Positions 29,403 through 48,105 of a stretch of 64,000 bases of DNA are shown piece by piece (within the stretch, counting starts at the first letter, position 1; every line of letters starts with the position of its first letter). The position numbers and the translations under genes were made by a program. The DNA is from Parcubacteria group bacterium. GTDB taxonomy: Bacteria > Patescibacteriota > Minisyncoccia > Moranbacterales > UBA2206. The DNA lies in assembly GCA_041659505.1 (NCBI GenBank), contig JBAZYF010000001.1, positions 502,712 to 566,711 of the forward strand, in the 5' to 3' direction. Under the pieces are notes generated by a model that did not search any database, was not told the DNA's origin, and saw nothing but the letters and a program-made list of their open reading frames with translations.

Positions 29403-29474
29403 GCGGGTATCGTATAGTGGCTAATATACGTCCTTGCCAAGGACGAGCGACGGGTTCGATTCCCGTTACCCGCT
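29403..29474 (+). tRNA. tRNA-Gly (GCC)
   Basis: acceptor GCGGGTA/TACCCGC, anticodon loop TTGCCAA, T-loop TTCGATT; 3' 9 nt overlap the stop region of the serine recombinase gene. Confidence 0.8.
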
Positions 29475-31085: not shown

Positions 31086-31109
31086 AATTTAACACGCACC
31101 TAAAATCGA

Positions 31110-31289
31110 TTATATAGCGCTCTTATTCTTTGTACACATATCAGAACGCTTTTTTATCGGCTTGTACACCGACCGAACCAGCTCGACTAAGTTTTCTGAA
31201 ATTTCAAAAGCCTCTTTAAGTGAAATTTTTTCGCCCGTTTCTTTCTCGTAGAGTATTTGAAATTTTTTAGCGTCTGATTCGGTTATCAT
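31110..31289 (-). CDS. small hypothetical protein (59 aa) between recombinase and NTPase genes
   Basis: ORF just below track cutoff; no motif. Confidence 0.2.
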   Translation of the reverse strand: MITESDAKKFQILYEKETGEKISLKEAFEISENLVELVRSVYKPIKKRSDMCTKNKSAI

Positions 31290-31446
31290 TTTGATTGTTA
31301 TAATTTAGATTTTTTCTTACACCCATTACACCGATAGCGATTTTGCCTTTAGACAAAACATTCTATGGGTGTATGACTTTCTATTGAGATACATCGGGTG
31401 AATGATCGCTTTTACACCAAACAACATCATGTTTAGTGTCTTACAC

Positions 31447-33018
31447 CTAAAAAAGAGTGCCTTCTGAAACACTTTGTTGCTCCGGTGTAGGAGGTGTAAT
31501 ACTTTTGCTAAAATAGCTGGCGTATATGGTCTCTACCTTGCTTTTTTCAAACAAGTAGCGGTTTCCGTTTTTTGTATGTCTCTTTTCAGATGAGAGATTG
31601 AAGTTTTTGATCGCACGTCCGACCATATTTGCCTTGTGTTTGTCGTTTTTTGCGTCACTGAAAATTTTTACATCACTTGTGTAATCGATGTATTGAGCAA
31701 TTTCTTTCGGACTAAGTTCGATCATGTCTTTTCCTTCGAATTGTTCAATAACGGCAATGGCGACAGCTTCTTCAATTTCAGATGGTTCATATTCGGCGAA
31801 TCCGTACCACGCAAGAAAGCGTTCTTTTGCTCCTTCAATTTCATCTGCCCAGCCAAATAGTTTAAAAATTGTTTCTATTGGAAGCCAAAGCTCCAGTTTG
31901 CGCCCGACGATGTCATTATTCTCACGGCTTTCTGATTTGCCAACAGTATAAAGTGAGCCAACTTCGCCGTAATTATTAACCAAGAATTTATAAATCATCC
32001 CTCGTATTTCTCGCCAGTTCTCGTTGTCGTCATCGGGATCGTGAAAATTCTTCTGACTTCTGATAAGTGGAATAACTAAACATCTATCTCTTAAGTCTTC
32101 TGGGAGTTCTTTTATGGATGCAAAAACTTTTGGTGAATAGGTTTCAAATTCTAAGATTTCTCTGCGACCTTTATTGACATTCATGATCCTTCTTTTGCCA
32201 CCACCTTTTTTGTACGAATCAGCCAGTAAATCTAAAAGTCCGCTGTTATCCTTGGGGTTTATGGAATCTGCTTGATCGATTAGATATGTACCTCTTAAAG
32301 CATCAACTGTATCACCTAAGGCCGCCATCGTTGGGCGTGATTTTAAGGCGTTGAAGCAAACTTGTCTTAAGAAGTTAAGACATTGGCTTTTGCCCGATCC
32401 TTTGGGAGCTTTGATGTTGAGAAAAGGATATGCGTAAAAGATTGGGAAAAAGTAAGTTCCAGCTATCCAAGCCGATAAAAGGTGATAATCAATTTCTTTT
32501 TCCAGCTCAATGTATTTTTTGGCCAATCCCGTAATTTTATTCGCCATCTCTTTCGGATTGGGAATGGTGTTATTGGCGATTGTAAAATTCTCAACAAATT
32601 TTTGTAAAGCGTCCATACTCCAGCGATCTTCAATCCACATCAATTTTCGCTTTTGTAGTTCCAGAAAGTATGTCTCCGTTGTGTCGTTCTCATCCTCATC
32701 ATTTTTAATCACGATTATGTCTTTGTCGGTAAGCATGATAGCCCTGTCTCTCATTATCAAGAAGACATTTTTTTCTTCCTCTACCGAAGCTCGGTAGCGA
32801 AATCCTAAGACCAAAAAATTATCTCTTATATCTAGTGATGGATGGAGAATTTTTTCTCCCATGCTTTCGATTTTATTTTCTTGTAGTTTCTCTGGCGGCT
32901 GTACAGTAACCATTTCTCCGTTTGGAAGAGTAATTTCGATGGTAGAATGTTCGTTGTTTTTTTCTTCCTCGATTTCTTTTTTAAGTTCTTCGAGCTTTTT
33001 CTCTGATTGTGTTTCCAT
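31447..33018 (-). CDS. P-loop NTPase (phage/plasmid primase-associated, D5/SF3-helicase-like)
   Basis: Walker A 'APKGSGKSQ', Walker B-like 'TYLIDQAD'; start abuts stop of upstream zinc-finger gene. Confidence 0.5.
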   Translation of the reverse strand: METQSEKKLEELKKEIEEEKNNEHSTIEITLPNGEMVTVQPPEKLQENKIESMGEKILHPSLDIRDNFLVLGFRYRASVEEEKNVFLIMRDRAIMLTDKDIIVIKNDEDENDTTETYFLELQKRKLMWIEDRWSMDALQKFVENFTIANNTIPNPKEMANKITGLAKKYIELEKEIDYHLLSAWIAGTYFFPIFYAYPFLNIKAPKGSGKSQCLNFLRQVCFNALKSRPTMAALGDTVDALRGTYLIDQADSINPKDNSGLLDLLADSYKKGGGKRRIMNVNKGRREILEFETYSPKVFASIKELPEDLRDRCLVIPLIRSQKNFHDPDDDNENWREIRGMIYKFLVNNYGEVGSLYTVGKSESRENNDIVGRKLELWLPIETIFKLFGWADEIEGAKERFLAWYGFAEYEPSEIEEAVAIAVIEQFEGKDMIELSPKEIAQYIDYTSDVKIFSDAKNDKHKANMVGRAIKNFNLSSEKRHTKNGNRYLFEKSKVETIYASYFSKSITPPTPEQQSVSEGTLF

Positions 33019-33019
33019 A

Positions 33020-33658
33020 TTATTGGAGCGACTTTATGGCGTTTTTGAAATCAACTCCATGAAGAAGCATATAAAATTTAATTACATCGCCCTTTTCGTG
33101 ACATCCGAAGCAATAAAAAGTATTGGTTTCGGCGTAGAAATAAAGTGAGGGTGTTTTTTCGTTGTGAAACGGACATAGTGCGACGAAATTTTTACCCGAT
33201 GATTTAAGTTCCAGCTTATCTCTGGCGAGTTCAATGACTGATCTCGACTTAGCGATTGCGATCATCTCTTGAAAATTTTCATATCGAGTGAATAATTTTT
33301 TTGTCGGACCTTCTACGATCGCAAGTTGTCTTTTGAGTTGAAAAATACGGTTTTCTATTTTGAGCAACTCTGGGATTCTAAGTTTTTCAAATAGAACATC
33401 GTAAAGCCACTGATCTTTTTCTGGAATGCCGACTAAATCTTTTTTAATTTCTGTTTTTAACCTTTCATATTCCTTTTTCCATTTCGAAATGTTTTCAGAA
33501 AGCATTTCTTTGCTTGGGCAAAAAGCCTCGACCAGCTCCTTGTCATTAAGCTTTGGTAGCGATCTTTTCCAGTGATTTTCTAGCTCGAGTGAGTGATAAA
33601 AAAATTCATCACTGTCAATGTAGTCTTGATTAGATTGGCTCTTAGACATTGTTTTCAT
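33020..33658 (-). CDS. CHC2 zinc-finger protein (primase-type zinc-binding domain at C-terminus)
   Basis: 'CPFHNEKTPSLYFYAETNTFYCFGCHEKGD' = C-x2-H-x17-C-x2-C. Confidence 0.55.
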   Translation of the reverse strand: MKTMSKSQSNQDYIDSDEFFYHSLELENHWKRSLPKLNDKELVEAFCPSKEMLSENISKWKKEYERLKTEIKKDLVGIPEKDQWLYDVLFEKLRIPELLKIENRIFQLKRQLAIVEGPTKKLFTRYENFQEMIAIAKSRSVIELARDKLELKSSGKNFVALCPFHNEKTPSLYFYAETNTFYCFGCHEKGDVIKFYMLLHGVDFKNAIKSLQ

Positions 33659-33783
33659 GCTTTTAAAAATTAAAAAATCCTTACCGTATTATGGTAAGGA
33701 TTGTAAATCAAAATTAAATTTAACGGCGTGACATTATGGGTCAATCCTAAATGTCACACTTCGTTGGGTTGCATAGTATATTA

Positions 33784-34632
33784 CTAATCGTTTGGCCTAT
33801 CTAGCTTTTTCATTGCAGAAAGAACCTCATCCTTGGTCATTGCTCTCGGTTGCGATACTTCTTTCTTTCGGCTAATAACTTTTCGAACGTATGCGAAACT
33901 TCCTTCTTGGCTTAGTCCTAATTCATCAGCTACCCTATAAGAGGTCAGTCCTTTTTTATGCAATTCAATTATTTTATCTTGCTTGTCACGAAAAATTTTA
34001 GAATGGATGGCTGGTAAGGGTAAATTATTTTTTCTGGCTGTTTCAAGTTGAGAGCGTTTTATATCTGTCCAATTGTCGTCAATCATTTTTTTCAGATCAG
34101 CCTTGGTTGCTTCTGGATAGACAAAAATCAAGGCCGAGAGATCTTTTTTGTTATAAAGAAAACCTTCAATATCGTATTCAAATCCAGGCCAAAAGAAAGC
34201 AGTATTCACCTGACAGCCATACCCTGTTGCCAATGAATCTGCCAATTCATATAGCGGTTTGTTTTTACCGAATAAGATAAATGAATGAAGATGGGTCGAT
34301 GCTCTCCGTGGAATTTGAAATTTGTCTAAAAGTTTTTCGGAAAAGTCATTGCTGTATAGGTTGTTCCAAGAAAGAATCATGGCTAGTAAATCTGGATTGT
34401 TCTTGTGTAACTTTTTTAATCTTTCTATCTCAGATTTACTTTTTGGGTCTATGTGTGACTGTAAATTATTTTTTACTAAAAAACCTCTCTCGTTTTTTTG
34501 TGTTTTAAATCCATTTTTAGGAATGCCCAGTTTCTTTCTGAACAAGTGGATTTCGTCCATAAAATCAACTCTATCCGCCAGGTTTAGTATTTGTTCAATG
34601 TATTTATTTTCTGGGTTGTCTTTCGTTTTCAT
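33784..34632 (-). CDS. hypothetical protein with C-terminal HTH
   Basis: 'GLTSYRVADELGLSQEGSFAYVRKVISRK' helix-turn-helix-like. Confidence 0.4.
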   Translation of the reverse strand: MKTKDNPENKYIEQILNLADRVDFMDEIHLFRKKLGIPKNGFKTQKNERGFLVKNNLQSHIDPKSKSEIERLKKLHKNNPDLLAMILSWNNLYSNDFSEKLLDKFQIPRRASTHLHSFILFGKNKPLYELADSLATGYGCQVNTAFFWPGFEYDIEGFLYNKKDLSALIFVYPEATKADLKKMIDDNWTDIKRSQLETARKNNLPLPAIHSKIFRDKQDKIIELHKKGLTSYRVADELGLSQEGSFAYVRKVISRKKEVSQPRAMTKDEVLSAMKKLDRPND

Positions 34633-34706
34633 AATAAGTATATTTTCCCATTAGATGAGACAAAAATCAAGTTGCATTTTGCCTTATTTTGTTGTATTTT
34701 ATATGT

Positions 34707-34825
34707 GATACCACAAGTTAATAAATACTGAGGCAAACCTCTGAGGTTTTTGTCCTATCACGCCCTTTAGCGGGCGGCTCGATGCACATGATAGGACACC
34801 TCGGTGTTTCTTGACTTGTGGTATC
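34707..34825. repeat. nested inverted repeats (outer GATACCACAAGT/ACTTGTGGTATC; inner TGTCCTATCA/TGATAGGACA; core GCCCTTTAGCGGGC)
   Basis: seen directly; about 120-bp potential cruciform/long hairpin at right edge of recombinase element. Confidence 0.75.
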
Positions 34826-34884
34826 CGTCGGGTCGTCCACTCAAGCGGAACTTCTCGGCGATCTAATTGATTTAGGTCGCTTTT

Positions 34885-35295
34885 ATGTTTAGCGAAAAAG
34901 TTGAATATCCAAAACTAAACGCAAGACAGAAAGAAATATACAACTTTCAAAAAGCTTCGGCCGTTTTTGCTGATTACGGGTATACAACTATCAAACTTTC
35001 AGACGACTGGATGGGCGCTGATTTTCTCGCGATCAGTTTCAATGGATCAAAGTATTTGAAAATCCAACTGAAAAGTCGACTGACTTTTGAAAAAAAATAT
35101 CTAGGCAAAGATATTTTTGTTTGTTTTTATGATAAAAAAAGTGGCACATGGTATGTCTATGCTCATGACGAAATGCTAAATAGCTTCATCAGCGGAATTG
35201 AAAATAGCGACTCGTGGAAAATAAGCGGAGGATACAGCTTCCCGTATTTAAACGACAAGGCGCAAAAATGTCTTAGTCAATGTGCCCTAGGGTAG
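34885..35295 (+). CDS. hypothetical protein
   Basis: ORF only. Confidence 0.35.
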   Translation: MFSEKVEYPKLNARQKEIYNFQKASAVFADYGYTTIKLSDDWMGADFLAISFNGSKYLKIQLKSRLTFEKKYLGKDIFVCFYDKKSGTWYVYAHDEMLNSFISGIENSDSWKISGGYSFPYLNDKAQKCLSQCALG

Positions 35296-35357
35296 GATTG
35301 TACCTTTTTGTATTTACGGCTTACTTTATAAACTACTATTAAACAGCCTCAACCAAA

Positions 35358-36443
35358 ATGAAAATCAAAAACACAATTAAAGAATTCTCAAATAAAATCG
35401 GAATCATTTTTCTAGTCATCTTTTTAGTCGCAATTGCGATAACGAGCATAACTAATATCAGTAAGGACAAACCGTCAGTTTTGCCCACTGTTATTCAAAA
35501 AAACAATCCCGAACGTCTGAAACAAAGGTTTCAAAAAATGACTGAACTTGAAACTAAAAAAGAATATGAAAAAATATACGACAGCTACTTATCGGCGGAA
35601 TCAAAAAAGAAAGTCAAGAGAGGCATGTTCATAGAGCCGCCAAAAAATACTATTGTTGGAAATAAAGAAGTGCTTTATAAGAAATGGGAAATCAATGATG
35701 TGGTAATTAAGGGCAATACTGGATACGTAGACAATACAATCGCTTACTGTTTCAATGAGAGCTGCGACGATCGAAGCGAATCCAAGGTATATTCAGACTT
35801 TGTCTATGAAAACGATAATTGGTTTGATAATGGTTGGAGCCATATTTTAAAGCCAGTGATGTGTCTTAGGGACAGTGGATATGATATTCCAGAAGAATTT
35901 AAACGGTCAATCAGCTTGATAGTTCAACGACTTGAACAATCGGGCAGTGCTTCGGCAAAAAATAACGCCGAAGATATAAAGAAAATTTCAAACTGTCTTA
36001 ACATTCAGTATGCCGATTCTGTCCAAGAAATGAACGAAGCCGAGGGATATTTCATATTTCTACCTTCGCAATCTTTAGGTGATTACACCATAAAGATATC
36101 GCCGAAGTATAGTACGAAAGATGATCTGTTGACTGCAATTTTATTATCCCACGAAATACAGCATGCCGTTGATTTTGTTTATGGGAATTACTCGGGAGCT
36201 GGACGAGACTGCTTCGATCTCGAAGCTCGAGCGTTTACTATGCAAAATAATATAATTTCTGCCATGAATAAGGAGGAAATAAATTCGTTAGTTACGAGAG
36301 CAGCGGTTGGAAATTCTACCGAAGCTACTCAAATTGTGGATTTATACATTATCATTCCAAAACTCAAAGGAAAGGATTATCACGAAAAAGCGTTGAATTT
36401 TGTAAAATCAGAGCCATTTTATCATGAACAATGCAAAAAATGA
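35358..36443 (+). CDS. membrane-anchored/secreted HExxH-motif protein (putative zinc metallopeptidase)
   Basis: N-terminal TM/signal 'IGIIFLVIFLVAIAITSI'; 'LLSHEIQHAVDF' HExxH. Confidence 0.4.
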   Translation: MKIKNTIKEFSNKIGIIFLVIFLVAIAITSITNISKDKPSVLPTVIQKNNPERLKQRFQKMTELETKKEYEKIYDSYLSAESKKKVKRGMFIEPPKNTIVGNKEVLYKKWEINDVVIKGNTGYVDNTIAYCFNESCDDRSESKVYSDFVYENDNWFDNGWSHILKPVMCLRDSGYDIPEEFKRSISLIVQRLEQSGSASAKNNAEDIKKISNCLNIQYADSVQEMNEAEGYFIFLPSQSLGDYTIKISPKYSTKDDLLTAILLSHEIQHAVDFVYGNYSGAGRDCFDLEARAFTMQNNIISAMNKEEINSLVTRAAVGNSTEATQIVDLYIIIPKLKGKDYHEKALNFVKSEPFYHEQCKK

Positions 36444-36694
36444 ATTAGTTAGAAAGGCTGGACCCGACAAAGGGTCTTTTTCTATTCCTCGAACCCCTAG
36501 AACATCCCTAGGAGCACAAAAGGTCAAAAAGAGTGCAGATATATGGCCGAGAGTCAAAATATTCGCTTAGGATGAAATCGTGGCTTGAAAGACGAAAGGT
36601 TTCAAATGAAACCTTTATTTGTGTTTGCTTAAATATTTTAGGCGTGTACGAAATTATAAAAGCACTTTACAATAAGACTATGTAAATCGAACTT

Positions 36695-37006
36695 ATGCCT
36701 GGAATACAAGGTCAAAATTTAGGAAATCAAAACGCATTCGGGAATTTGGGTGGAAAATCACTGAACGATCGAAAACTCGCAGCTGAAGTGAGGACTTTGG
36801 TATTAAAGAAAATCAAACAATTATTAGAAATTCCAGACTGCGAAAGGTCGGTAGAAGAATTTGAATTGTATCGAGCCGTTCTGATTAAGTTGGCGGGCTC
36901 AATTCTTCCTCGTTTAAATGAAGTCACTGGTGAGGATGGTGAAGGGCTGACGATCACTATTGCACCGGAGATTGCAGAAAAGAACGGGATTGTGGCAATG
37001 TCCTAA
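36695..37006 (+). CDS. hypothetical protein
   Basis: ORF flanked by intrinsic terminators (36589-36622 upstream, 37085-37118 downstream). Confidence 0.35.
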   Translation: MPGIQGQNLGNQNAFGNLGGKSLNDRKLAAEVRTLVLKKIKQLLEIPDCERSVEEFELYRAVLIKLAGSILPRLNEVTGEDGEGLTITIAPEIAEKNGIVAMS

Positions 37007-37336: not shown

Positions 37337-38422
37337 ATGTCTGATGTAAACAAAAGAAATGCCGTTATTTACAAAATATTGACGGATTTTCTTGAGCGAA
37401 CTGGAAAATACAATTTTTTGCCACCATTCAGCATTGAAGAAGTGGAAATTTTGTTCAATACTTCAATATGGGGGCACAGGGAAATCGTACTGACAATAAT
37501 ACTCGCAAGACTTTTTGATCCAAAATTTAAAGCATCAAAAAATTTCTATTCTTGTAATCCAAGATCGATTTTTGAAAAACCAATCAGGAAAGCATTAAGA
37601 GAGTATGGAGTACCTCATAGAAAATCAGGACCATTGAATGTTGCAAAGAACACAGAGAAAATTAATAAGGACTGGGCAGCAAACAAGCATGAAGAAAAAA
37701 TTGCGATGACTGTTGTCGGGTTGGTTAAAAAAATTGAAGCCGTGCCATACGCAGAATTGGGAAAGTTTGCTTTAGCATATGTTGCGCGATACAAACAAGA
37801 GGCAAAAAGAATTAAGGAAATGGAAATAAAATTGGAACCAAAAGAAAACCCAATTTTTATTTCTAAATTGTGCATTGATCTCGTTAATTCTGTTCCTGAT
37901 GGTGGCGCAATCCCGCAGATGATTTCAGGCTTACTTATGGAAGTAAAAAATCAAGACAGAAAATGTGCCGTTGAAGTTATCGGACACTTAGATAGTGTAT
38001 CAGCCACAAATACTACTAGCAAAAAGCCTGGCGATATAGTTGAAAAAATAACTGGCGATTCTGAACTTATTTATGAAGTGACGACTAAGGGTTTCACAGA
38101 TGACAGATTAATAGAATCCCATGAATCCGTAATGGTATATGATAAAAATATAAAGGATGTTTTTGTTATATGTAGACCGAAAGATATTCCAGAAACATTA
38201 ACCACTGCAAGCAATTCGTACATTATGGCGACTACTCAATATAAAGAATTAGCTTACTATTTCATAAATATCTATGACTTCATCCAATCTTCGCTATTAT
38301 TTTTAACTCCAAAAAGTAGGAGATTATTTTATAGCAAATTAGTTGATTATGTAAATGAAACAAATACTTCAGAAAAAGTAAAGAAGTTTTTCAAACAATG
38401 GCACACTGAAAATTTGTTATAG
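37337..38422 (+). CDS. hypothetical protein; candidate restriction endonuclease partner of adjacent C5-MTase
   Basis: convergent with and overlapping (6 nt) the MTase gene; no recognisable motif. Confidence 0.3.
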   Translation: MSDVNKRNAVIYKILTDFLERTGKYNFLPPFSIEEVEILFNTSIWGHREIVLTIILARLFDPKFKASKNFYSCNPRSIFEKPIRKALREYGVPHRKSGPLNVAKNTEKINKDWAANKHEEKIAMTVVGLVKKIEAVPYAELGKFALAYVARYKQEAKRIKEMEIKLEPKENPIFISKLCIDLVNSVPDGGAIPQMISGLLMEVKNQDRKCAVEVIGHLDSVSATNTTSKKPGDIVEKITGDSELIYEVTTKGFTDDRLIESHESVMVYDKNIKDVFVICRPKDIPETLTTASNSYIMATTQYKELAYYFINIYDFIQSSLLFLTPKSRRLFYSKLVDYVNETNTSEKVKKFFKQWHTENLL

Positions 38423-39481
38423 GTTAAAATCTTCCATTGAATCACTTAAGGCCGATGCAACAGCATGAGCTAAATCACATGGAACAGCATTTCCTATTTG
38501 ATGGTATATTGAATTATCCTTTCCGAAAAATTTATAATCGTTGGGGAATGTTTGAATCAATGCCGCTTCTTTTGTTGTAATTCTTCTCAAGTGATTCGGA
38601 ACACAAATGTCGTTTGTCTTTTTTCCGCTAGATAATAATTTATGGTACTTTTCAATCCAATTCTTCCCATCATTAAAAGCGTGATCTTCATCAATTATAG
38701 GTGTCCTGTTTCCTCCCATTGAAGCAGGAAGGGTGTTTGAGTGTCCCATTATATCAATAGGTCTCCCAGCTCCGTTAAAAAGCATCCCGGCATATGGCGA
38801 CCTTCTCATTATGGGGTCACGAGCAAGAGTTATTTTCGCATTACATGTTTTTGGATTAACAGATGTCCCCATTGGCCCTAGTCCCTTTAATATGTCTATT
38901 ACCCTAGGCGCGCTCCGTTTATATTTTTCGAGATATTCAACAAACCTTTTGGATTCTTTTTTTGAATTTTCTTTTTTAATGCCAACAAAAAACATCCTTT
39001 CTCTTTTTTGTGGTACTCCGAAATGTGTCGCATTGAGTAATACTAACTCGGCATCATAACCTAAATCCCATGCTCTCTTAAATAACATGTTTCGAACTGG
39101 TTGCCATTTATCTAGGACTGCGAGTGCTTTAACATTTTCTAGGACAAATGCTTTTGGATTAACTTTTTCAATAACATCCATAAAACTGAAAATTAGCTTG
39201 CTCCTTTCATCATTTGGATCCATTTTGCCTGCGACAGAAAACCCCTGACATGGAGGGCCACCAAATACAAGATCAATGTTTTTAAAATCTGAAAGTTGAT
39301 CTATGTAATTTCTAATATCCCCGCATTCTATAATGCCGGTATGATTTGCAGAGTATGTGTTACAAGCATCTGAATCTATCTCATTTGCCCATACAACATT
39401 AAAACCAGCACGCGAAAAGCCAACATCCATTCCGCCAGCTCCAGTAAATAGTGATATTGATTTTCTTTTATTTTTTTTCAT
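38417..39481 (-). CDS. DNA (cytosine-5)-methyltransferase
   Basis: motif I 'FTGAGGMDVGF', motif IV 'GGPPCQGFSVAGK', 'ENV' motif VI. Confidence 0.85.
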   Translation of the reverse strand: MKKNKRKSISLFTGAGGMDVGFSRAGFNVVWANEIDSDACNTYSANHTGIIECGDIRNYIDQLSDFKNIDLVFGGPPCQGFSVAGKMDPNDERSKLIFSFMDVIEKVNPKAFVLENVKALAVLDKWQPVRNMLFKRAWDLGYDAELVLLNATHFGVPQKRERMFFVGIKKENSKKESKRFVEYLEKYKRSAPRVIDILKGLGPMGTSVNPKTCNAKITLARDPIMRRSPYAGMLFNGAGRPIDIMGHSNTLPASMGGNRTPIIDEDHAFNDGKNWIEKYHKLLSSGKKTNDICVPNHLRRITTKEAALIQTFPNDYKFFGKDNSIYHQIGNAVPCDLAHAVASALSDSMEDFNL

Positions 39482-39495
39482 ATTTAAATTCTTGA

Positions 39496-40095
39496 TTATT
39501 CTAGATTATAGGAAATCACTCCTTTTACTAAACCTTCAACCTTAAAATCTTCTGTTGCTAAGAATGGTTCAAACTTTTCATTTATTGAAAATAGCCAAAT
39601 GTGATCTTTTTCTTTTCTGATTTTTTTAATTAATGCTCCACCATTGTTTACGCAAACAACAATGTCGCCATTATCAAAATTATTGGTCTTTTTTGTAATA
39701 ACTAGATCACCGTTATTTATTTTTGGATACATTGAATCTCCCTTTGCTTTTACTAAAAATGAATCTGCGGAAGAAACTAATTTTCTTGAGAGAGGTATTC
39801 TATCAACAGGGCTTCCATCAAGTATGCTTTCTCCTGGACCACAGTGGGCGAGTCCGTAAAGGTTTAAGAAGATAATTTTTTTATCGGGTGAATCAGCAAT
39901 TATTTCATAATCTTGTGGATTATTAGGATTTCTTTTTAGAAATCCATTTTTTTCGAGTTGTAATATGTGGTGATGGACTAAGCTTGTAGAGGATACATCG
40001 AGTTTTTCTTGTAGCTCTCTAATTGTTAGGGGGTCATCGAAGTGCTCTTTAAGTAGTTCGAGTAGCTTTTTTTGTGTAGAATGTAGTGTTTTCAT
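39496..40095 (-). CDS. LexA-like repressor (wHTH + S24 peptidase), paralog 1
   Basis: N-terminal wHTH 'LTIRELQEKLDVSSTSLVHHHILQLEKNGFL', Ala-Gly-like cleavage region 'LAHCGPG', 'KGDSMYP' Ser and downstream Lys. Confidence 0.7.
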   Translation of the reverse strand: MKTLHSTQKKLLELLKEHFDDPLTIRELQEKLDVSSTSLVHHHILQLEKNGFLKRNPNNPQDYEIIADSPDKKIIFLNLYGLAHCGPGESILDGSPVDRIPLSRKLVSSADSFLVKAKGDSMYPKINNGDLVITKKTNNFDNGDIVVCVNNGGALIKKIRKEKDHIWLFSINEKFEPFLATEDFKVEGLVKGVISYNLE

Positions 40096-40137
40096 ATTTT
40101 TATTATATCATGTGAATAAGATGTGCACAAGAACATC

Positions 40138-40166
40138 TTGACCTGTTCGGGTATTTGTTCTATACT
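40138..40166 (+). promoter_or_regulatory. sigma70-like promoter TTGACC-N17-TATACT driving the CBASS-like operon; overlapped by dyad symmetries (AGATGT-N8-ACATCT, GAACA-N8-TGTTC at 40119-40148)
   Basis: hexamers and spacing seen directly; palindromes overlap the -35. Confidence 0.45.
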
Positions 40167-40200
40167 CCCAATATAACACATTTTTAAGTTCTGTGTAAAT

Positions 40201-41376
40201 ATGACAAAAAAACTAGGAGATAAAAATAAAATCAACGCTATTACAGAGACAACGCGTTCAATAAACAATGAAACTAAACTGCTTCTTGCTGTCAAATCAG
40301 GCGGACGCTGTGAGTTTTTCGGCTGTAATGACTATCTTTTTTCAGATAAAATAACGAAAAAAAATATCAAATGGGGCGAGTTTGCTCACATTTATGCGTT
40401 TAAGGAAGATGGCCCAAGAGGAAACAAAAAATTACGACCAGATAATATCAACGACGTTGATAATTTGATGTTATTATGCCCATCATGTCATACAAAAATT
40501 GATAAAATGAAAAATTTACCCTTTTATACTGTAGAGATTTTGCGAAAACAAAAGAAAGAGCACGAAGACCGCATAAAATTAGTATCTGGATTTAAAAACA
40601 CTAACAAGACTAAAGCTCTGGGTATGAGCGTAAGCATTGAAAATGAAGCAATCTGTGTGTCTGAAGATGAAATCACGGAAGCTTTAATGGCTGAAAGCCG
40701 ATATCAATATCAAGAAAAGCCCAACATGATTGATTTTTCCAATGTTCCTTCTGAAAACACTCAGCTTTATTGGAAATCAAAATGTAAGGATATTAATATA
40801 ATGACTGAGAAATTTTATGAGCAATTAAAAAGAGATGGCTTGGAGCATGTTTCAGTTTTTGCAATTGGTCCAATCCCATTGCTGGTATATTTGGGGTCAA
40901 AATTGGAAAACAAAATAAAGACTCAGCTTTTTCAGCGTCATCGAGACAGTGAAAGCTGGAAATGGAATGATGGCGTTGGCAAGGTCGGTTATAAGTTGAA
41001 TATTATCAATGGAAAGGACAAAAGCAAAGTAGCTTTAGTGCTTTCTTTAAGCGGTAAAATACATCAAGCTCATCTGCCAAAAAAGATTGACGGGGGTTTT
41101 TATGTTTATGAAATTACACTTGATAACCAAGAACCAAATTTTTATTTTTTGAAATCAAAAGATGATCTAGACAGATTTGGCCACATATATTCCAAAACAT
41201 TAAGTGAAATTAGAAATGGGCATCCAAAACTCAAAGAAATTCATTTATTTTCTGCCATACCAGCGCCAATCGCGGTTGTTTGTGGCAGAGCGTTGAATCG
41301 AAAGGCAGATACTTCATTCAAGATTTATAACCCAACAAATGGTGCCCAATTTAAATATGCTTTAAAAATTAATTAA
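40201..41376 (+). CDS. HNH endonuclease fused to C-terminal sensor-like domain (Cap5-like HNH-SAVED CBASS effector candidate)
   Basis: N-terminal 'CEFFGCND...HIYAF...NLMLLCPSCHTKID' HNH motif; about 250-aa C-terminal domain unassigned by eye; immediately upstream of CD-NTase. Confidence 0.45.
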   Translation: MTKKLGDKNKINAITETTRSINNETKLLLAVKSGGRCEFFGCNDYLFSDKITKKNIKWGEFAHIYAFKEDGPRGNKKLRPDNINDVDNLMLLCPSCHTKIDKMKNLPFYTVEILRKQKKEHEDRIKLVSGFKNTNKTKALGMSVSIENEAICVSEDEITEALMAESRYQYQEKPNMIDFSNVPSENTQLYWKSKCKDINIMTEKFYEQLKRDGLEHVSVFAIGPIPLLVYLGSKLENKIKTQLFQRHRDSESWKWNDGVGKVGYKLNIINGKDKSKVALVLSLSGKIHQAHLPKKIDGGFYVYEITLDNQEPNFYFLKSKDDLDRFGHIYSKTLSEIRNGHPKLKEIHLFSAIPAPIAVVCGRALNRKADTSFKIYNPTNGAQFKYALKIN

Positions 41377-41382
41377 AATAAC

Positions 41383-42285
41383 ATGAAAACACAAGAATAC
41401 CTAGAAAAAGTTTTAAAACTTCAAACATTAGATGAAAAAAGCGAGGAAATTAAGGCTCTTCGTTCAGAGCGGGATAAGGTTGAGAATCTTCTAAGAACCC
41501 ATTTTGAGGATGTTCCAATATCAATTCAATATGCTGGCTCTTACAAGAAAGGCACAATGATAAGGGAAAGTTATGATCTTGATATGACTTGTTATTTTAA
41601 TAATGGGGATGATTCTGGCGGTGCGACACTAGAAGAAATATTTTCAAATGTTCAGCAGGCCCTTGCGTCCGAATATCATGTTTACCCAAAAAGATCAGCT
41701 TTAAGACTGCAAAGTAAGGATTCTGAAAATAGGGTTGATTTTCATATTGATGTTATTCCTGGGAGATTTGTTGATGGCGATAAGGGTGATGTCTATATTT
41801 TTCAAGCGGAAGGTGAAAAAGATAGATTGAAAACCAATCTTGAAAAGCATGTAAATCATATTACTGGGAGCAAATTAATTGACACAATTCGCCTTGTAAA
41901 GCTTTGGAAGGAATTGAATCAACTAGACGCCAAAACGTTTATTATAGAATTGTTGGTGATAAAGCTTCTGGAGGATACGACAGATAGCAATGGTTTAGAT
42001 GTATGCTTTGAAAGTTTTTTAACTGAAGTTATAGAAAAAATCGACAATATAGCACTTGAAGATCCCGCAAACCCATCTGGCAATGATCTCTCTGGGATAC
42101 TAAGTGAAGGTGTTAAGGCTGGCTTGAAATCTTTAGCAGAAAAGATTTTGATTTCAATTGAGAATGAAAGGTGGAAGGATATTTTTGGAGAAGTTGAGGA
42201 GGCTGATGATGAGGAAAAAAAACGAGCAATCAACGAGGCGAGACAATCTAATTCTGTTCCAATTAATCCTTGGTGTGTCCTATGA
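41383..42285 (+). CDS. cGAS/DncV-like nucleotidyltransferase (CD-NTase / SMODS)
   Basis: 'GSYKKGTMIRESYDLDM' (GS-x10-DhD), third Asp in 'VDFHIDVIPG', 'IRLVKLWKELNQL' matching DncV 'CRFMKAWRD' helix. Confidence 0.65.
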   Translation: MKTQEYLEKVLKLQTLDEKSEEIKALRSERDKVENLLRTHFEDVPISIQYAGSYKKGTMIRESYDLDMTCYFNNGDDSGGATLEEIFSNVQQALASEYHVYPKRSALRLQSKDSENRVDFHIDVIPGRFVDGDKGDVYIFQAEGEKDRLKTNLEKHVNHITGSKLIDTIRLVKLWKELNQLDAKTFIIELLVIKLLEDTTDSNGLDVCFESFLTEVIEKIDNIALEDPANPSGNDLSGILSEGVKAGLKSLAEKILISIENERWKDIFGEVEEADDEEKKRAINEARQSNSVPINPWCVL

Positions 42286-43019
42286 AACCTTGGTTTTTAG
42301 AAAATCCGACGCTACTTGATGAACTTAAAATTCTTATTGATTTAAAATATGCTACCCTAAACACTAGCATAGAGAACGCAGTTGTTTATATTCGAGGCAC
42401 TTTATTTATTAAGAGTCTGGAGGGTAAAGAGCTGGGACGCTATAAAATAGAAATCATAATCCCAGACGATTATCCAAATTCAGCTCCGATCTTAAGAGAA
42501 ACTGGGGATAAGTTTAATAAAGTTGCAGATAGGCACTTCAATGCGATAGATAACACCGCATGTCTGTTTTTCAGAGATGCTAAATACAAGTATTTCCCAA
42601 AAGGATCAAGCATAGTTGATTTTATAGAAGGGCCAATTAAGAACTTTTTTCTTTGGCAAATAGATTATGATTTAAATGGAGGCAAATCAAGCCTGGGAGG
42701 ATTGGATCATGGTACTTTTGGATTAATTCAATTTTATAAAGAAGAACTGGGTGTAAACGATGAAGAATCGGTGTTTAGATTTCTAGTCCTTTTTGATAGC
42801 AAGGTTGTCCCGAGAGCTAAAAAATGCTTTTGCGGTAGTGGTAGCCTATTAAAAGATTGCCATATACAGAAGTTCAGAGCTTTAAAACAAAGCATACCCA
42901 GAAAAGACGCAAAAAAATCCCTAAATGAATTGAGGGATTATATGGATAGAATGCAGAGCCTAAAACAAAAATATGGAAAAGAGGCAGTAGACGGTGCAGT
43001 TAAGCAGATTAGAGGTTAA
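42282..43019 (+). CDS. E2 (UBC-fold)-like protein, candidate Cap2-type partner (type II-short CBASS)
   Basis: 'IPDDYPNSAPIL' (YPxxPP-like) then 'RHFNAIDNTACLFF' (HxN...C) resembling the E2 active-site region; ATGA start/stop overlap with CD-NTase. Confidence 0.35.
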   Translation: MKPWFLENPTLLDELKILIDLKYATLNTSIENAVVYIRGTLFIKSLEGKELGRYKIEIIIPDDYPNSAPILRETGDKFNKVADRHFNAIDNTACLFFRDAKYKYFPKGSSIVDFIEGPIKNFFLWQIDYDLNGGKSSLGGLDHGTFGLIQFYKEELGVNDEESVFRFLVLFDSKVVPRAKKCFCGSGSLLKDCHIQKFRALKQSIPRKDAKKSLNELRDYMDRMQSLKQKYGKEAVDGAVKQIRG

Positions 43020-43176
43020 AACCAGCACTTCTCTCCATAAATCCAGTTCTAACCGCATTAACTAAGTAGCTCAGATAAAAATAGTCCCTATTTAGGGGGC
43101 TATTTTTTATACCCATAAAGACAGCTCAGATTTTTTGTGGTAATATTGAAATGTAATTTAATCATAATAAAAAAAT

Positions 43177-44067: not shown

Positions 44068-45384
44068 TTATGTTACGGCTCCGATAAACATCGGGATGCC
44101 TATACGTTGTCTTTTATTTTCTCCTTTGATCTGGAGTGTTTTTCGCAGAGGCGCATCGCCCCGTTCTTTCTCGTGTTGCAATGCAGAGTTGGCTAGAGAG
44201 CTTACCCCGAGGTGGACCGTGTGTTTTCCAAATTTATCATTGATCTCGTCGATGCTATGGTAGAGCTTTTTCAAGCCCTTAGCACGCAGGACTTCGCAGA
44301 ACAGATCGAGCTGTTTTGTGACATCTTCCTCGAGTTTGAAAAAGGCGATGCCGGTCGCGCGATATGAAAGGCTTTGATCAAATATCTGATCAAAATATTT
44401 TTCCACAACGTTGATGATTTCGCTGGGAATGGCCGTCGGGCGGGAAAATTGAATTTCCATTCCGGCATAGCGGAAGGATTGGAGCTTCAAGAAAAAAGTC
44501 GCATTGCGAGCGCGAAGATTATAGCGGCGTAATTTGATGCAAGCATTTTCAATATTTTTCGCTAACTGGGAAAAAATAAAATCGCGATCATTGGAAGGCG
44601 GAGTAAAAGTTCTCACTTTTTGGACTGAAGTATAGGTTGTTCGGCCAGTCACATCCAGAGGCAGAATAAATTTGCCATTAAGTTCTTGCCAGGTTTCAAT
44701 CGTCGGTTTGGTGAATTTGCGCCTGACCCACTCTTCGTCTTTATGAGCAAATTCCAAAGCGGTATTTATTCTCTCATTTTTCAGGTAAGCACCGGTCTGT
44801 GGTCCGATGCCCCAAACATCTTCTGTTTCTTTTTGAGCGAGAAATTCGTGGATTTGATAGCCAGGAATGACGGTCAGTCCTGAGGGTTTTTTCCATTTGG
44901 AACCGATTTTGGCGATGGTTTTGTTCGGTCCTAGTCCGACTGAAAAAGTAAAGCCTAATTCTCGGTCCAGATCCTGCTTGATTTTTTCGGCAATTTTCGG
45001 GTAAGACATGCGCAAGGGTCGACGCAATCCAGTGATGTCGGCAAAACATTCGTCGATACTATATTCCTCAACTTCACTCGTGTAGCGCCGGACAATCTCA
45101 AAAAAACGCTTAGAAAGCAGGCTGTAGGTTTCATAATCAGACGGAAGGATAATCGCTTCGGGACAGATTTTTTTGATCTCAAAAATTCGCATCCCTCGTC
45201 TGACGCCACGCGCTTTGGCTTCATAGCTTAAGGATGCGGCAATTCCGCGTTCTCGGCCTGTTATCACTGGTTTGCCTTTTAGTGCGGGATCGCGCGATTG
45301 CTCACAGGAGGCAAAAAAAGCATCTCCGTCGATATGGATGATAGCTCGGTTGAAAGAATTGATGCTCAAGGTTTCGTTTGGCAT
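44068..45384 (-). CDS. Y-family (UmuC/DinB-like) error-prone DNA polymerase
   Basis: 'IIHIDGDAFFASCEQ' and 'SIDECFADITG' catalytic motifs. Confidence 0.85.
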   Translation of the reverse strand: MPNETLSINSFNRAIIHIDGDAFFASCEQSRDPALKGKPVITGRERGIAASLSYEAKARGVRRGMRIFEIKKICPEAIILPSDYETYSLLSKRFFEIVRRYTSEVEEYSIDECFADITGLRRPLRMSYPKIAEKIKQDLDRELGFTFSVGLGPNKTIAKIGSKWKKPSGLTVIPGYQIHEFLAQKETEDVWGIGPQTGAYLKNERINTALEFAHKDEEWVRRKFTKPTIETWQELNGKFILPLDVTGRTTYTSVQKVRTFTPPSNDRDFIFSQLAKNIENACIKLRRYNLRARNATFFLKLQSFRYAGMEIQFSRPTAIPSEIINVVEKYFDQIFDQSLSYRATGIAFFKLEEDVTKQLDLFCEVLRAKGLKKLYHSIDEINDKFGKHTVHLGVSSLANSALQHEKERGDAPLRKTLQIKGENKRQRIGIPMFIGAVT

Positions 45385-45388
45385 CAGT

Positions 45389-45955
45389 TTAGTGGTATTT
45401 TCTGATGACGGAAATTACTACCGCAGAAATGATCAGTTCTTCTTTTGGAATGATCGGTTTGTATTTCTTGTTTGCTGGCATCAGAATTGTTTTGCCATTG
45501 AGCTTTTCCAAAAATTTCATCGTCCATTTTCCGTCTACTTCCGCGATGACAATGTCGCCATCTTTGGATGCTTTGCCCCTTTCGACTAAGACAATATCAC
45601 CCGAGCGGATGCCCGCATCAATCATCGAGTCACCGCTGACGTTTAACATATAGGTGGCTTCTTTGTTGGAAATCAGAAATTCATCGATCGTTATCGTATC
45701 AACCAGTTCTTCTTCCGCCGGAGAAGGAAAGCCAGCGGTGATTGAACCCAAAATTTTGGTTTCGCCGAACAGTTTTTTGGGCAGTAATCTGCCTTTCTCA
45801 TCTTTTGAAATCAGCTCAGCTTCGATCATTTTTTTCACCAGGCGGGTAACCGAGTTGATTGATTTGAACTTGCAAAGTCCCATTATTTCTCGATAGCTTG
45901 GCATCCGGCGATATTTTTTGTAGAATGAGAGTAGCTTTTGTTGGTAGTTTTTCAT
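45389..45955 (-). CDS. lexA: LexA repressor (paralog 2), in operon with Y-family polymerase
   Basis: wHTH N-terminus, 'ITAGFPSPAEE' cleavage region, 'VSGDSMIDAGI' Ser and 'KASKDGDIVIAEVDGKWTMK' Lys. Confidence 0.8.
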   Translation of the reverse strand: MKNYQQKLLSFYKKYRRMPSYREIMGLCKFKSINSVTRLVKKMIEAELISKDEKGRLLPKKLFGETKILGSITAGFPSPAEEELVDTITIDEFLISNKEATYMLNVSGDSMIDAGIRSGDIVLVERGKASKDGDIVIAEVDGKWTMKFLEKLNGKTILMPANKKYKPIIPKEELIISAVVISVIRKYH

Positions 45956-45990: not shown

Positions 45991-46006
45991 GTGTACAAAT
46001 GTACAC
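45991..46006. promoter_or_regulatory. candidate LexA operator GTGTAC-AAAT-GTACAC (GTAC-N4-GTAC palindrome)
   Basis: perfect dyad in the 95-bp region between divergent lexA and SRAP genes. Confidence 0.45.
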
Positions 46007-46050: not shown

Positions 46051-46713
46051 ATGTGTGGAAGATTTTCAATCAGCACTCCTTGGAAAGATTTGGAGGAAAG
46101 ATTTGCGCTAACCATTCCGGAGGGAATTTATAATCCACGCTATAATGCCGCTCCTAGTCAAAAGATGTTAGTTGTTTCGCAGGAAAAACCACACGAAGCG
46201 GAACTTTTTCAATGGGGTTTGATTCCGCACTGGGCCAAAGATACTAAGATTGGGCAAAAGCTGATCAACGCTCGAGCAGAAACAATCACGGAAAAGCCTT
46301 CATTCAAGGAGTCTTTCAAACTTAGGCGCTGTTTTGTGTTGGCAGATGGATTTTATGAGTGGGATAAAAAATCCAACAGTCATATCCCATATCTCATAAT
46401 GCTAAAAGAGGGAGAGCCTTTTGCTTTTGCTGGTATCTATGACTATTGGCGCGATCCATCAGATCGAATGATCCGGTCCTTCTCAATCATAACGACCGAA
46501 GCGAATAGCCTAGTTTCTCGGATCCACGACCGGATGCCCGTGATTCTCACTAGGCAAGAAGAACGAGCGTGGCTTAATCCTGAATTAAAGCTGGATGATG
46601 CTAAACAAATGCTCATTCCTTATCCAGTAGAAGATATGCAAATGTATCAAATATCTACACTAATTAATAGCCCCAGAAATGATAGCGCCGCGGTAGTTGT
46701 TCCGGTCGGTTAA
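46051..46713 (+). CDS. SOS response-associated peptidase (SRAP/YedK, abasic-site processing protein)
   Basis: N-terminal 'MCGRF' catalytic Cys2, 'YNAAPSQ', 'FYEW' motifs. Confidence 0.85.
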   Translation: MCGRFSISTPWKDLEERFALTIPEGIYNPRYNAAPSQKMLVVSQEKPHEAELFQWGLIPHWAKDTKIGQKLINARAETITEKPSFKESFKLRRCFVLADGFYEWDKKSNSHIPYLIMLKEGEPFAFAGIYDYWRDPSDRMIRSFSIITTEANSLVSRIHDRMPVILTRQEERAWLNPELKLDDAKQMLIPYPVEDMQMYQISTLINSPRNDSAAVVVPVG

Positions 46714-46767: not shown

Positions 46768-48105
46768 ATGTCATTTGAATTTAATTCAGCAATATCCGTT
46801 GAAAAAAAAGAAACACTGGATGATAAATGGTATGAAAGATTTAGCGCTTGCGGTTCTTTCGCTGATTATGAATATCTTGGCGGAGAAAAGTCAGTCAGGG
46901 AAAAGTCGAAAAACGATTTTATTCAAGGAAAGTGCGAAAATCCCACACTTGATTATCCCGATTTGGAAAAATTGGATATATCTCGAAGAGGACAAGACTT
47001 GCTTCAACTTAAAAGAGATATTTTAGAACAAGAAACAAATGAAACGATCAAACAAATATACCGTTGGAAAATAAACGAAAAAATTGCAGAGTTGAGAATG
47101 CTCGGGGAAACAAAAAGCGGAAACGATAGGAGATTTTTTCGTTATTCTAAATTTATCTACGGAAAGCCCGAGCAAGAAATATTTGCATATACGATTAGTC
47201 AGATAAAAAAGGTTATTGATGGTAAAATAAATGATACAAGGGAAGGTGTCCGTGAAGCGGCAAAAAGATTGTCCAATGAATTATCAGATCCACTTTCAAT
47301 AGAAAAACCCAAAATAACTGATTTAAAGGATTTTATAAAAGAAAGCTCGGAATCCAAAGAATTCACTAATACTGAATATAATGCTGAAGAAATAAAATAC
47401 GCTTTTGAACAAGCTTTGGAAAAATATAAATTGACTGGTTGGAATGTGGTAGTCACGGAAAAAGGCACTGCCGTAAGTGTGAGTCAGGAAAATAAAAATG
47501 TTAATATTCCATCAAGCCGAAAAATGAAAGAAAATAAATTAAGGGCACTAATTGAGCATGAAATTGGAACGCATGTTTTGCGGAGAGAAAAAGGAGAAAA
47601 AACTAAACTAAAGCTTTTAGGACTAGGGCTAGATAGGTATTTGAAAGGTGAAGAGGGTATTGCTACCTATGAAGAGCAAAAAATTTTAGGAGCAAACGAG
47701 TTCGCTGGTTTTGATGGGCATTTGGCTATTGCTCTGGCTATGGGAATGGATGGTAAAAAACGAGATTTTAGAAAAGTTTATGAAATATTGAAAGATTATT
47801 ATTTTATCAATTCTAAGAAAGAGGAATCAGAAGCAATAATACAAGCTGAAAACTCTGCCTGGAATCGTTGTGTTAGAACTTTCCGGGGAACTAGCTGTGG
47901 CTCTTGTGGGGCTTGTCTGACAAGGGATATCGTTTATAGGGAAGGAAATATAGGGACTTGGAATGTGGTGAAAAACAAGCCAGAGGAAGTTAAAAGATTT
48001 ATGGTTGGAAAATATGATCCTGGAAATCAGAGACATATCTGGATTTTGGAACAATTGGGCATAACAGATAGCGATTTGGATGATTTAGAAAAAGAATTAT
48101 CGTAG
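46768..48105 (+). CDS. HExxH protein, DUF1704-like ('QEGLA'-motif family)
   Basis: 'IEHEIGTHVLRR' and 'GEEGIATYEEQ'; family assignment from memory. Confidence 0.35.
   Translation: MSFEFNSAISVEKKETLDDKWYERFSACGSFADYEYLGGEKSVREKSKNDFIQGKCENPTLDYPDLEKLDISRRGQDLLQLKRDILEQETNETIKQIYRWKINEKIAELRMLGETKSGNDRRFFRYSKFIYGKPEQEIFAYTISQIKKVIDGKINDTREGVREAAKRLSNELSDPLSIEKPKITDLKDFIKESSESKEFTNTEYNAEEIKYAFEQALEKYKLTGWNVVVTEKGTAVSVSQENKNVNIPSSRKMKENKLRALIEHEIGTHVLRREKGEKTKLKLLGLGLDRYLKGEEGIATYEEQKILGANEFAGFDGHLAIALAMGMDGKKRDFRKVYEILKDYYFINSKKEESEAIIQAENSAWNRCVRTFRGTSCGSCGACLTRDIVYREGNIGTWNVVKNKPEEVKRFMVGKYDPGNQRHIWILEQLGITDSDLDDLEKELS

Follow-up and report, generated by a model that had tools for sequence, protein, structure and literature searches.

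How toxic abortive-infection systems are silenced until they are needed is an active question, and the locus described here raises it directly. In a 64,000-nucleotide stretch of the genome of a Parcubacteria group bacterium (contig JBAZYF010000001.1; the whole stretch is called the window below, and positions are counted from its first letter), a three-gene operon of the CBASS type (antiphage signalling that relies on cyclic oligonucleotides) is transcribed divergently from the gene for a LexA-family repressor, LexA1. What keeps this operon in check, and what releases it? The best explanation, in which we have moderate confidence, is that a type II-short CBASS is derepressed by damage-triggered, presumably RecA-dependent self-cleavage of LexA1. 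Comparative evidence, namely a conserved operator and recurrent adjacency, supports the predicted LexA control of CBASS.

We re-examined a sequence-only reading of the window, which had proposed a CBASS-like operon in a reduced genome resembling those of the candidate phyla radiation (CPR). The genome type was right, given the parcubacterial source, and the open reading frame (ORF) coordinates, the three spacings between genes and the start/stop overlap were all exact on re-check (Table 1). Hidden Markov model (HMM) searches confirmed HNH-SAVED, CD-NTase and E2 domains in the three products. The first product has the expected Cap5 architecture: it matches Pfam SAVED (7.7e-36), Pfam HNH_2 (1.6e-7) and a PADLOC effector endonuclease model (6.1e-143), and it aligns over its full length with solved Cap5 chains (8ysq, 9e-46; 7rwk, 2e-40).

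The second product scores above the Pfam SMODS cut-off (28.0 bits; cut-off 26.5) and matches the PADLOC cyclase model PDLC00803 at 1.2e-67. Residues G52, S53, D65, D67 and D123, the last within FHIDV, are invariant in an alignment of 32 homologues, as is W175 in KLWKE. The catalytic motifs of the cGAS/DncV-type signature that had been read from the sequence are therefore present, except that their spacing is GS-x11-DLD (G52 S53 ... D65 L66 D67) and not x10. The protein belongs to a divergent, short CD-NTase subfamily and does not reach the cut-off of 200 bits set for the NCBIfam CBASS cyclase equivalogs (NF041116, 64.4 bits; NF041117, 53.3 bits). Its only sequence match in the PDB is the clade C enzyme E. 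coli CdnC (6p80, 3e-5). A generic minimal nucleotidyltransferase or antitoxin was also considered for this 300-aa protein and is excluded by its PADLOC scores and by its neighbours, which do carry SAVED and E2 domains.

For the third product a UBC/E2 fold had been suggested. Five PADLOC E2 models match it at 1e-35 to 1e-45 (best 1.5e-45). Because a sequence search of the PDB returned nothing usable (E=0.96), we examined the fold through an AlphaFold (AF2) model with a predicted local distance difference test score (pLDDT) of 78.8. The top PDB folds are all UBC/UEV (Cdc34, Tsg101 UEV, UBE2A), modest matches with E ~5e-3 and probability 0.9-1.0. Residues R84, H85, C94, C182, C184, C193 and H194 are invariant in the homologue alignment, and the invariant RH85 and C94 together with the model matches bear out the E2 assignment. 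The longest ORF of this gene starts at TTG 42270, and the 4-nt overlap with the cyclase gene is also found in relatives (L001; L numbers denote the loci collected for comparison). The C-terminal extension of the protein holds, at residues 182-194 (42825-42866), an invariant CxCGSG-x6-CH motif with a weak SEC-C Pfam match, which may form a zinc knuckle.

Neither an E1 nor a JAB gene lies at the locus, and after the terminator the next ORF encodes an unrelated membrane protein. The region 40201-43019 is a type II-short (E2-only) CBASS, a kind that has already been described in the CdnG-E2 system of Serratia marcescens (PMC12948482) and in CdnG-Cap5 systems (PMC8568899). It has in common with these a CD-NTase, a cyclic-nucleotide-activated effector and a stand-alone E2 with a catalytic Cys, again with neither E1 nor JAB. 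Cap5, CD-NTase and E2 genes follow one another in this order in ~75 of the 84 scanned loci, which come from many phyla. The window operon differs from the Serratia system in placing the effector gene first and in having a cyclase of 300 aa, against ~400 aa for SmCdnG. The cyclase family of the window ends in an invariant (K/R/N)-P-W (P296, W297) followed by 2-4 residues that vary, the first of them often Cys; the window protein itself ends ...NPWCVL, and unlike in SmCdnG there is no conserved C-terminal Gly. The E2 differs as well: SmE2 (18 kDa) is too short for a knuckle, whereas the window protein has 245 aa with the invariant CxCG...CH. Cyclic nucleotide synthesis and phage defence by the operon are predicted by homology.

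CBASS has so far been connected with three classes of regulator, all of them DNA-damage sensing and encoded upstream of other immune operons too: CapW (PMC9122588, PMC11662680), CapH/CapP (10.1101/2022.04.27.489752) and CapK/CapS (PMC13373217). The arrangement in the window is like theirs in that a repressor gene sits directly upstream of CBASS and derepression is presumed to follow DNA damage or the appearance of single-stranded DNA (ssDNA). Unlike CapH/CapP (a helix-turn-helix protein, HTH, with a separate metallopeptidase), CapW (a WYL ssDNA sensor) and CapK/CapS (a kinase-repressor pair), LexA1 is a single protein that joins a winged HTH to an S24 domain, and its type also controls, or at least adjoins, a methyltransferase. 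HMM scans of the ORFs flanking the operon found no XRE-HTH with ImmA/IrrE, no wHTH-WYL-WCX and no kinase plus repressor domains. The description of the control as analogous to but distinct from CapH/CapP was thus apt, since neither CapH/CapP nor CapW domains are present. We found no report of LexA- or S24-type regulation of CBASS in the literature, the papers on CapW, CapH/CapP and CapK/CapS included. A LexA-type autoprotease would be a new CBASS regulator class beside these three.

Is LexA1 equipped for this role? The protein matches Peptidase_S24 (6.2e-23, 81.2 bits; cut-off 23.3) and LexA_DNA_bind (3.4e-9, 36.8 bits; cut-off 23.7), in agreement with the LexA-like, divergently encoded wHTH-S24 protein first described. 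An alignment with E. coli LexA places HC-GP at the position of A84-G85, the Ser in GDSM and the Lys in IKKI; the cleavage site is thus Cys-Gly, as in UmuD. The (A/C)-G, Ser and Lys are kept in all 10 CBASS-associated LexA-like proteins aligned, and homologues of LexA1 at ~60% identity carry the name "repressor LexA" in several phyla. Judged by its residues, LexA1 is a complete LexA-family autoprotease with those needed for self-cleavage, which RecA would presumably stimulate.

We then compared the DNA upstream of lexA at 10 loci; the LexA proteins encoded there share 64-84% identity with LexA1. The lexA-proximal ~65 bp are nearly invariant, and the DNA next to the opposite genes is unalignable. 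The conserved block reads TAGAACAaannnTAGAACAAGTCAAGnTGTTCTTG(t/a)(g/a)CACAT...TATAAT-N6-ATG and carries two direct AGAACA hexamers and one inverted TGTTCT. Read towards lexA, the window has AGAACA-N6-CGAACA-N8-TGTTCT, and the GAAC/GTTC hexamers are invariant or nearly so in the 10 loci. The outward promoter is built into this block: its -35 lies between hexamers two and three and its -10 abuts hexamer one. The -35 TTGAC is kept in 9/10 loci (L095 has TTGCG) and the -10 TAnnnT in the first six loci aligned. The TTGACC-N17-TATACT promoter with overlapping dyads had been noticed from the window alone and is present as stated; phylogenetic footprinting now backs it further. By itself the promoter match is not above chance (28 promoter-like sites observed between 37 and 46 kb, 31.6 expected), and it is significant only because it is conserved in 10 related loci.

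On the other strand, the consensus scan skipped the lexA1 promoter, whose -35 fits the consensus at 3/6 positions only. Its -10 TATAAT ends 6-7 nt before the ATG in the window (40093-40107), L003, L087, L089-L092 and L095. Because the -10 box ends so near the ATG, the mRNA of lexA1 and the methyltransferase gene behind it is probably leaderless. In all 10 loci the three-hexamer block overlaps or abuts both promoters. We infer that LexA1 binds the GAAC hexamers and regulates its own gene. Elsewhere in the 64-kb window the GAAC operator gave nothing above chance-level 2-mismatch matches. In 1.2 Mb of locus sequence the composite operator occurs at lexA1 loci only, with no further strong site and no wider LexA1 regulon shown. 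One passage of PMC7739468 cites a Patescibacteria SOS study (Sanchez-Osuna 2017) among reports of direct-repeat LexA motifs.

Within the CD-NTase family of the window, how often does a LexA-like gene stand beside CBASS? We ran a LexA-like HMM over fragments translated in six frames from this family's 84 loci, most of which come from 80 species genomes. A LexA-like gene lies directly upstream of CBASS in 7/7 Patescibacteria-titled loci (L013, L017, L022, L023, L061, L082, L083) and in 4/73 other loci (L006, L007, L042, L057; Fisher p=1e-7). It also stands beside CBASS in L001/L002 and L003, the closest metagenomic relatives of the window. Most pairs are tandem, and in six loci the genes are spaced by -4 to +10 nt, which implies that CBASS is co-transcribed with the tandem lexA. 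The LexA-like proteins concerned belong to at least three lineages, 27-47% identical to one another, in divergent or tandem orientation. Between the window and L001, Cap5 and CD-NTase are 73% identical while the LexA-like proteins are 35% identical and the arrangement differs. The same CBASS lineage has thus come to stand beside different LexA genes.

In L007, a gammaproteobacterial metagenome-assembled genome, the region between the divergent lexA and CBASS genes showed no CTGT-N8-ACAG SOS box on reading and so gives no independent confirmation. A tandem cassette of LexA-like, Cap5 and CD-NTase genes was also seen at 6132-8237 of L099, a predicted viral contig of IMG/VR with a GC content of 0.58, from a high-GC organism. 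LexA-CBASS cassettes therefore occur outside CPR too, possibly on a prophage. IMG/VR does not contain the exact operator pattern, and the CD-NTase family is found there on one viral contig only; given both, a phage origin is unsupported.

Scanning metagenomes with the LexA1 protein on its own gave 2 loci, and we therefore collected contexts orthologue by orthologue (64-84% identity). The genes opposite lexA1, here called its cargo, turned out to be exchangeable. They encode type II-short CBASS in the window and L003, a CBASS I cyclase with a 2TM/SLATT effector in L089 and L092, a CBASS I cyclase with a 1TM effector in L098, and ThsB-TIR with PDC-M50A in L091. The slot is filled by a trypsin-like protease and a 308-aa protein in L087 (4051-5902), by uncharacterized 116-aa and 207-aa proteins in L095 (3724-4751), and by small ORFs only in L090 and L096. 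The pairs of L087 and L095 gave no confident defence-family match; by position, both are candidate new defence systems. L096 indicates that LexA1 does not serve CBASS alone, since the LexA encoded there is orthologous to it and retains the same operator although defence genes are absent. We read the lexA locus of this Parcubacteria clade as a defence hotspot, with the lexA1 cassette as fixed anchor and exchangeable cargo on both sides.

On the second side of the anchor is a putative restriction-modification (R-M) module. The gene 14 nt behind lexA1 had been assigned to a C5 DNA methyltransferase, and both the spacing and the family are confirmed (Pfam DNA_methylase 9.6e-74; PADLOC MTase_II 1.2e-78). 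The proposed link to R-M also stands, since a methyltransferase gene recurs 2-36 nt behind the lexA1 orthologue in 8 distinct loci, the window included, and is of C5, N6/N4 or Eco57I-like type. In the window it is probably co-transcribed with lexA1. A 361-aa ORF converges on the methyltransferase gene and shares 6 nt with its 3' end; it had no match in Pfam, NCBIfam, PADLOC or PHROG. The orthologous loci usually have a convergent ORF here too, and in three of them it is a recognisable restriction endonuclease (RE_NgoBV, weak NotI-like and RE_Alw26IDE, in L090, L091 and L095). Such recurrence, with methyltransferase families that differ between the loci, would also suit a LexA1 that times methyltransferase against endonuclease, as C-proteins do, with the divergent CBASS incidental. 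We judge this very improbable. L096 has the operator without any R-M genes, and the endonuclease of L098 is adjoined by a separate HTH_3 gene resembling that of a C-protein. No homologue of the window C5 methyltransferase was found near the tandem LexA-CBASS loci, other methyltransferase families not having been searched. Control of R-M timing is in any case compatible with control of CBASS and does not exclude it.

Several observations weigh against LexA1 control of the CBASS operon. LexA1 scores 106.2 bits against the NCBIfam lexA model TIGR00498, slightly below its cut-off of 110.95, a threshold that the tandem LexA-like protein of L001 passes with 144.8 bits. No RecA was seen in the 64 kb of the window. 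The binding of LexA1 to the hexamers is inferred from their conservation and position, and a conserved block would be expected from lexA autoregulation alone, with the outward promoter irrelevant; in L096 the block is kept with just a 49-aa ORF opposite. In about 70 loci of the family outside CPR, no LexA-like gene lies within 7 kb, so such a regulator is not needed for CBASS function. The action of E2 on the cyclase may also differ from that in the Serratia system, because the cyclase is without the C-terminal Gly that SmCdnG uses for conjugation. Finally, the adjacency of LexA1 and CBASS could partly reflect an integration hotspot, with tRNA-Pro, tRNA-Gly and a serine recombinase nearby and low GC content at 29.4-44 kb.

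Taken to its limit, this last point would make lexA1 a housekeeping LexA at a site where defence genes preferentially land, the CBASS promoter constitutive and LexA without any role in it. The housekeeping context of lexA and operator in L096, the flanks that L087 and the window have in common (RNase Y, iPGM, tRNA-Pro/Gly and cluster c7), the recombinase of the window and another in L098, the regional GC of 0.33-0.37 and the majority of family loci that work without LexA are all consistent with it. We nevertheless consider it unlikely. Cargo of at least five kinds, in 8 loci with defence or unknown genes, starts ~100-250 nt from lexA (~100 nt in six), and the sole conserved promoter-like element there is embedded in the GAAC repeats. 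The association is seen with at least three lineages of LexA and in either orientation, and adjacency in every Patescibacteria-titled locus is far above chance. In other lineages the close spacing of CBASS behind a different LexA-like gene forces co-transcription, and a hotspot alone leaves these tandem operons unexplained.

The surroundings of lexA1 also bear on whether the repressor belongs to a mobile element. In phage lambda the rexAB genes share a transcript with cI and are expressed as long as the repressor stays intact. The window resembles cI-rexAB in setting an S24 autocleaving repressor, probably with a leaderless mRNA, beside an abortive-infection module. It is unlike it in that the CBASS operon runs divergently and LexA1 is predicted to repress it, and in that lexA1 stands in L087 and L096 without a prophage backbone. 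By analogy, LexA1 could be the CI- or SetR-like immunity repressor of an element that spans ~29.4-44 kb and includes primase/helicase-like genes; its cleavage would mainly set off excision or replication of the element, with CBASS and R-M as passengers. The large serine recombinase does abut tRNA-Gly, and a DnaG-type zinc-ribbon protein and small ORFs lie at 29.4-37 kb; in L089, L090 and L091 these primase-like and small-ORF clusters recur on the R-M side. LexA1 further matches PHROG repressor families (4e-25), and L099 is a predicted viral contig that carries the cassette. Yet L087 and L088 keep cargo, lexA1, methyltransferase and endonuclease genes beside tRNA-Gly/Pro without an integrase or primase block, and in L096 lexA has only cell-division and housekeeping genes around it. 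LexA1 has a DNA-binding domain of the LexA and not the XRE/CI type, structural and packaging genes are absent, and IMG/VR holds neither the operator nor more than the one viral contig with the CD-NTase family. We therefore regard an element-borne immunity repressor as improbable, and the CBASS promoter would stay under LexA1 control even so.

What the window does contain is a probable integrative element of ~8 kb between the tRNAs and the R-M genes, which is absent from the syntenic L087. In L087, cargo, lexA, methyltransferase and endonuclease genes adjoin the flank known from the window (tRNA-Gly/Pro, HU, RNase Y and iPGM) with neither recombinase nor primase. The synteny of L087 and L096 argues that lexA1 is separable from the recombinase block. 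The interval 29403-37006 also holds a 523-aa ORF and small ORFs.

Table 1. Features of the lexA1-CBASS locus and its flank (positions in the window)
Feature	Position	Strand	Remarks
tRNA-Gly	29403-29475		overlapped by 3' end of serine recombinase gene
Large serine recombinase	29466-31085		PHROG integrase 3e-63
DnaG-type zinc-ribbon (primase-like) protein	33020-33658		
Putative restriction endonuclease partner of C5 methyltransferase	37337-38422	+	361 aa; assigned by position only
C5 cytosine DNA methyltransferase	38417-39481	-	starts 14 nt past LexA1 stop
LexA1	39496-40095	-	199 aa; winged HTH and S24 autoprotease repressor of LexA family
Intergenic promoter/operator region, bidirectional	40096-40200		105 bp
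lexA1 promoter, TTGTGC-N17-TATAAT	40102-40130	-	conserved in most aligned loci
Putative LexA1 operator	40130-40161		AGAACA 40130-40135, TGTTCG 40144-40149, TGTTCT 40156-40161
CBASS promoter, TTGACC-N17-TATACT	40138-40166	+	-35 TTGAC at 40138-40143
Cap5-type effector, HNH + SAVED	40201-41376	+	391 aa
Short CD-NTase	41383-42285	+	300 aa; 6-nt gap after Cap5 gene
E2-like (Cap2-short) protein	42282-43019	+	245 aa; ATGA start/stop overlap 42282-42285
Hairpin and T-run, terminator-like	43085-43108	+	closes three-gene operon

Canonical SOS systems offer a second comparison, since an autoregulated lexA can face a divergent SOS-induced neighbour, as in B. subtilis lexA/yneA. The lexA1 locus is like lexA/yneA in its shared divergent intergenic region, where LexA boxes (putative ones at lexA1) overlap the promoter of the opposite gene. 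It is unlike lexA/yneA in its operator (AGAACA-N6-AGAACA-N8-TGTTCT) and in the exchangeable abortive-infection systems that occupy the opposite slot. The window genome moreover has a second LexA paralogue, with another palindrome at a dinB operon. This protein (LexA2; 45389-45955, 188 aa) passes the cut-off of a UmuD-like subfamily and scores 109.3 bits with TIGR00498. Its gene is in an operon with a Y-family polymerase gene (44068-45384) and divergent from an SRAP/YedK gene (46051-46713), and a near-perfect palindrome, GTGTACAAATGTACAC at 45991-46006, overlaps its TTGACG-18-TATAAT promoter. It looks like a separate SOS module of translesion-synthesis type, with an operator unlike that of LexA1. 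The -35 region of lexA1, TTGT(G/A)CACAT (40120-40130), is similar to the half-site TGTACAC in the palindrome of LexA2, and cross-regulation between the two paralogues is possible. Farther on, 46768-48105 encodes a 445-aa protein with a match at 1e-30 to the MATCAP family (microtubule-associated tyrosine carboxypeptidase), unexpected in CPR; it is presumably a metallopeptidase of other function.

Returning to a type II-short CBASS released by LexA1 self-cleavage, we propose the following sequence of events. In an unstressed cell, LexA1 on the hexamers would keep both the CBASS promoter and the lexA1-methyltransferase promoter low. Phage replication or DNA damage would generate ssDNA and activated RecA, and LexA1 would cleave itself. 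The CBASS proteins would then rise and the suicide system would be primed; the methyltransferase would rise as well, and host DNA would be shielded from the linked restriction enzyme. By homology, infection would cause the CD-NTase to make a cyclic oligonucleotide, whose binding by the SAVED domain of Cap5 would lead the HNH domain to degrade DNA in an abortive infection, with the E2-like protein tuning the cyclase.

The operon type is known; what is new is the near-universal LexA-type control predicted for this CBASS family in CPR and an architecture that resembles a socket. CPR bacteria have tiny genomes and few regulators, and to our knowledge work on immune regulation has covered none of them. 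The link between LexA and CBASS appears to be the rule in CPR, as it holds for all seven genome loci, the window and its closest relatives. The LexA cassette may even be a general immunity socket of Patescibacteria, which takes up three CBASS types, a TIR/Thoeris-like pair or a protease pair on one side and different methyltransferases on the other, with RecA/ssDNA damage as the main licensing cue and LexA as the fourth class of CBASS regulator; this wider generalization we put forward tentatively, as an attractive possibility that we would not yet count as probable. That lexA and a methyltransferase gene recur as an operon suggests that damage induces additional methylation, as a guard against self-restriction. 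The conserved 65-bp block with its swappable cargo is a directly testable system and could guide the discovery of defence genes through uncharacterized cargo such as the pairs of L087 and L095. If the proposed control is true, a self-cleaving repressor of the LexA type joins CBASS directly to the classical RecA/SOS pathway.

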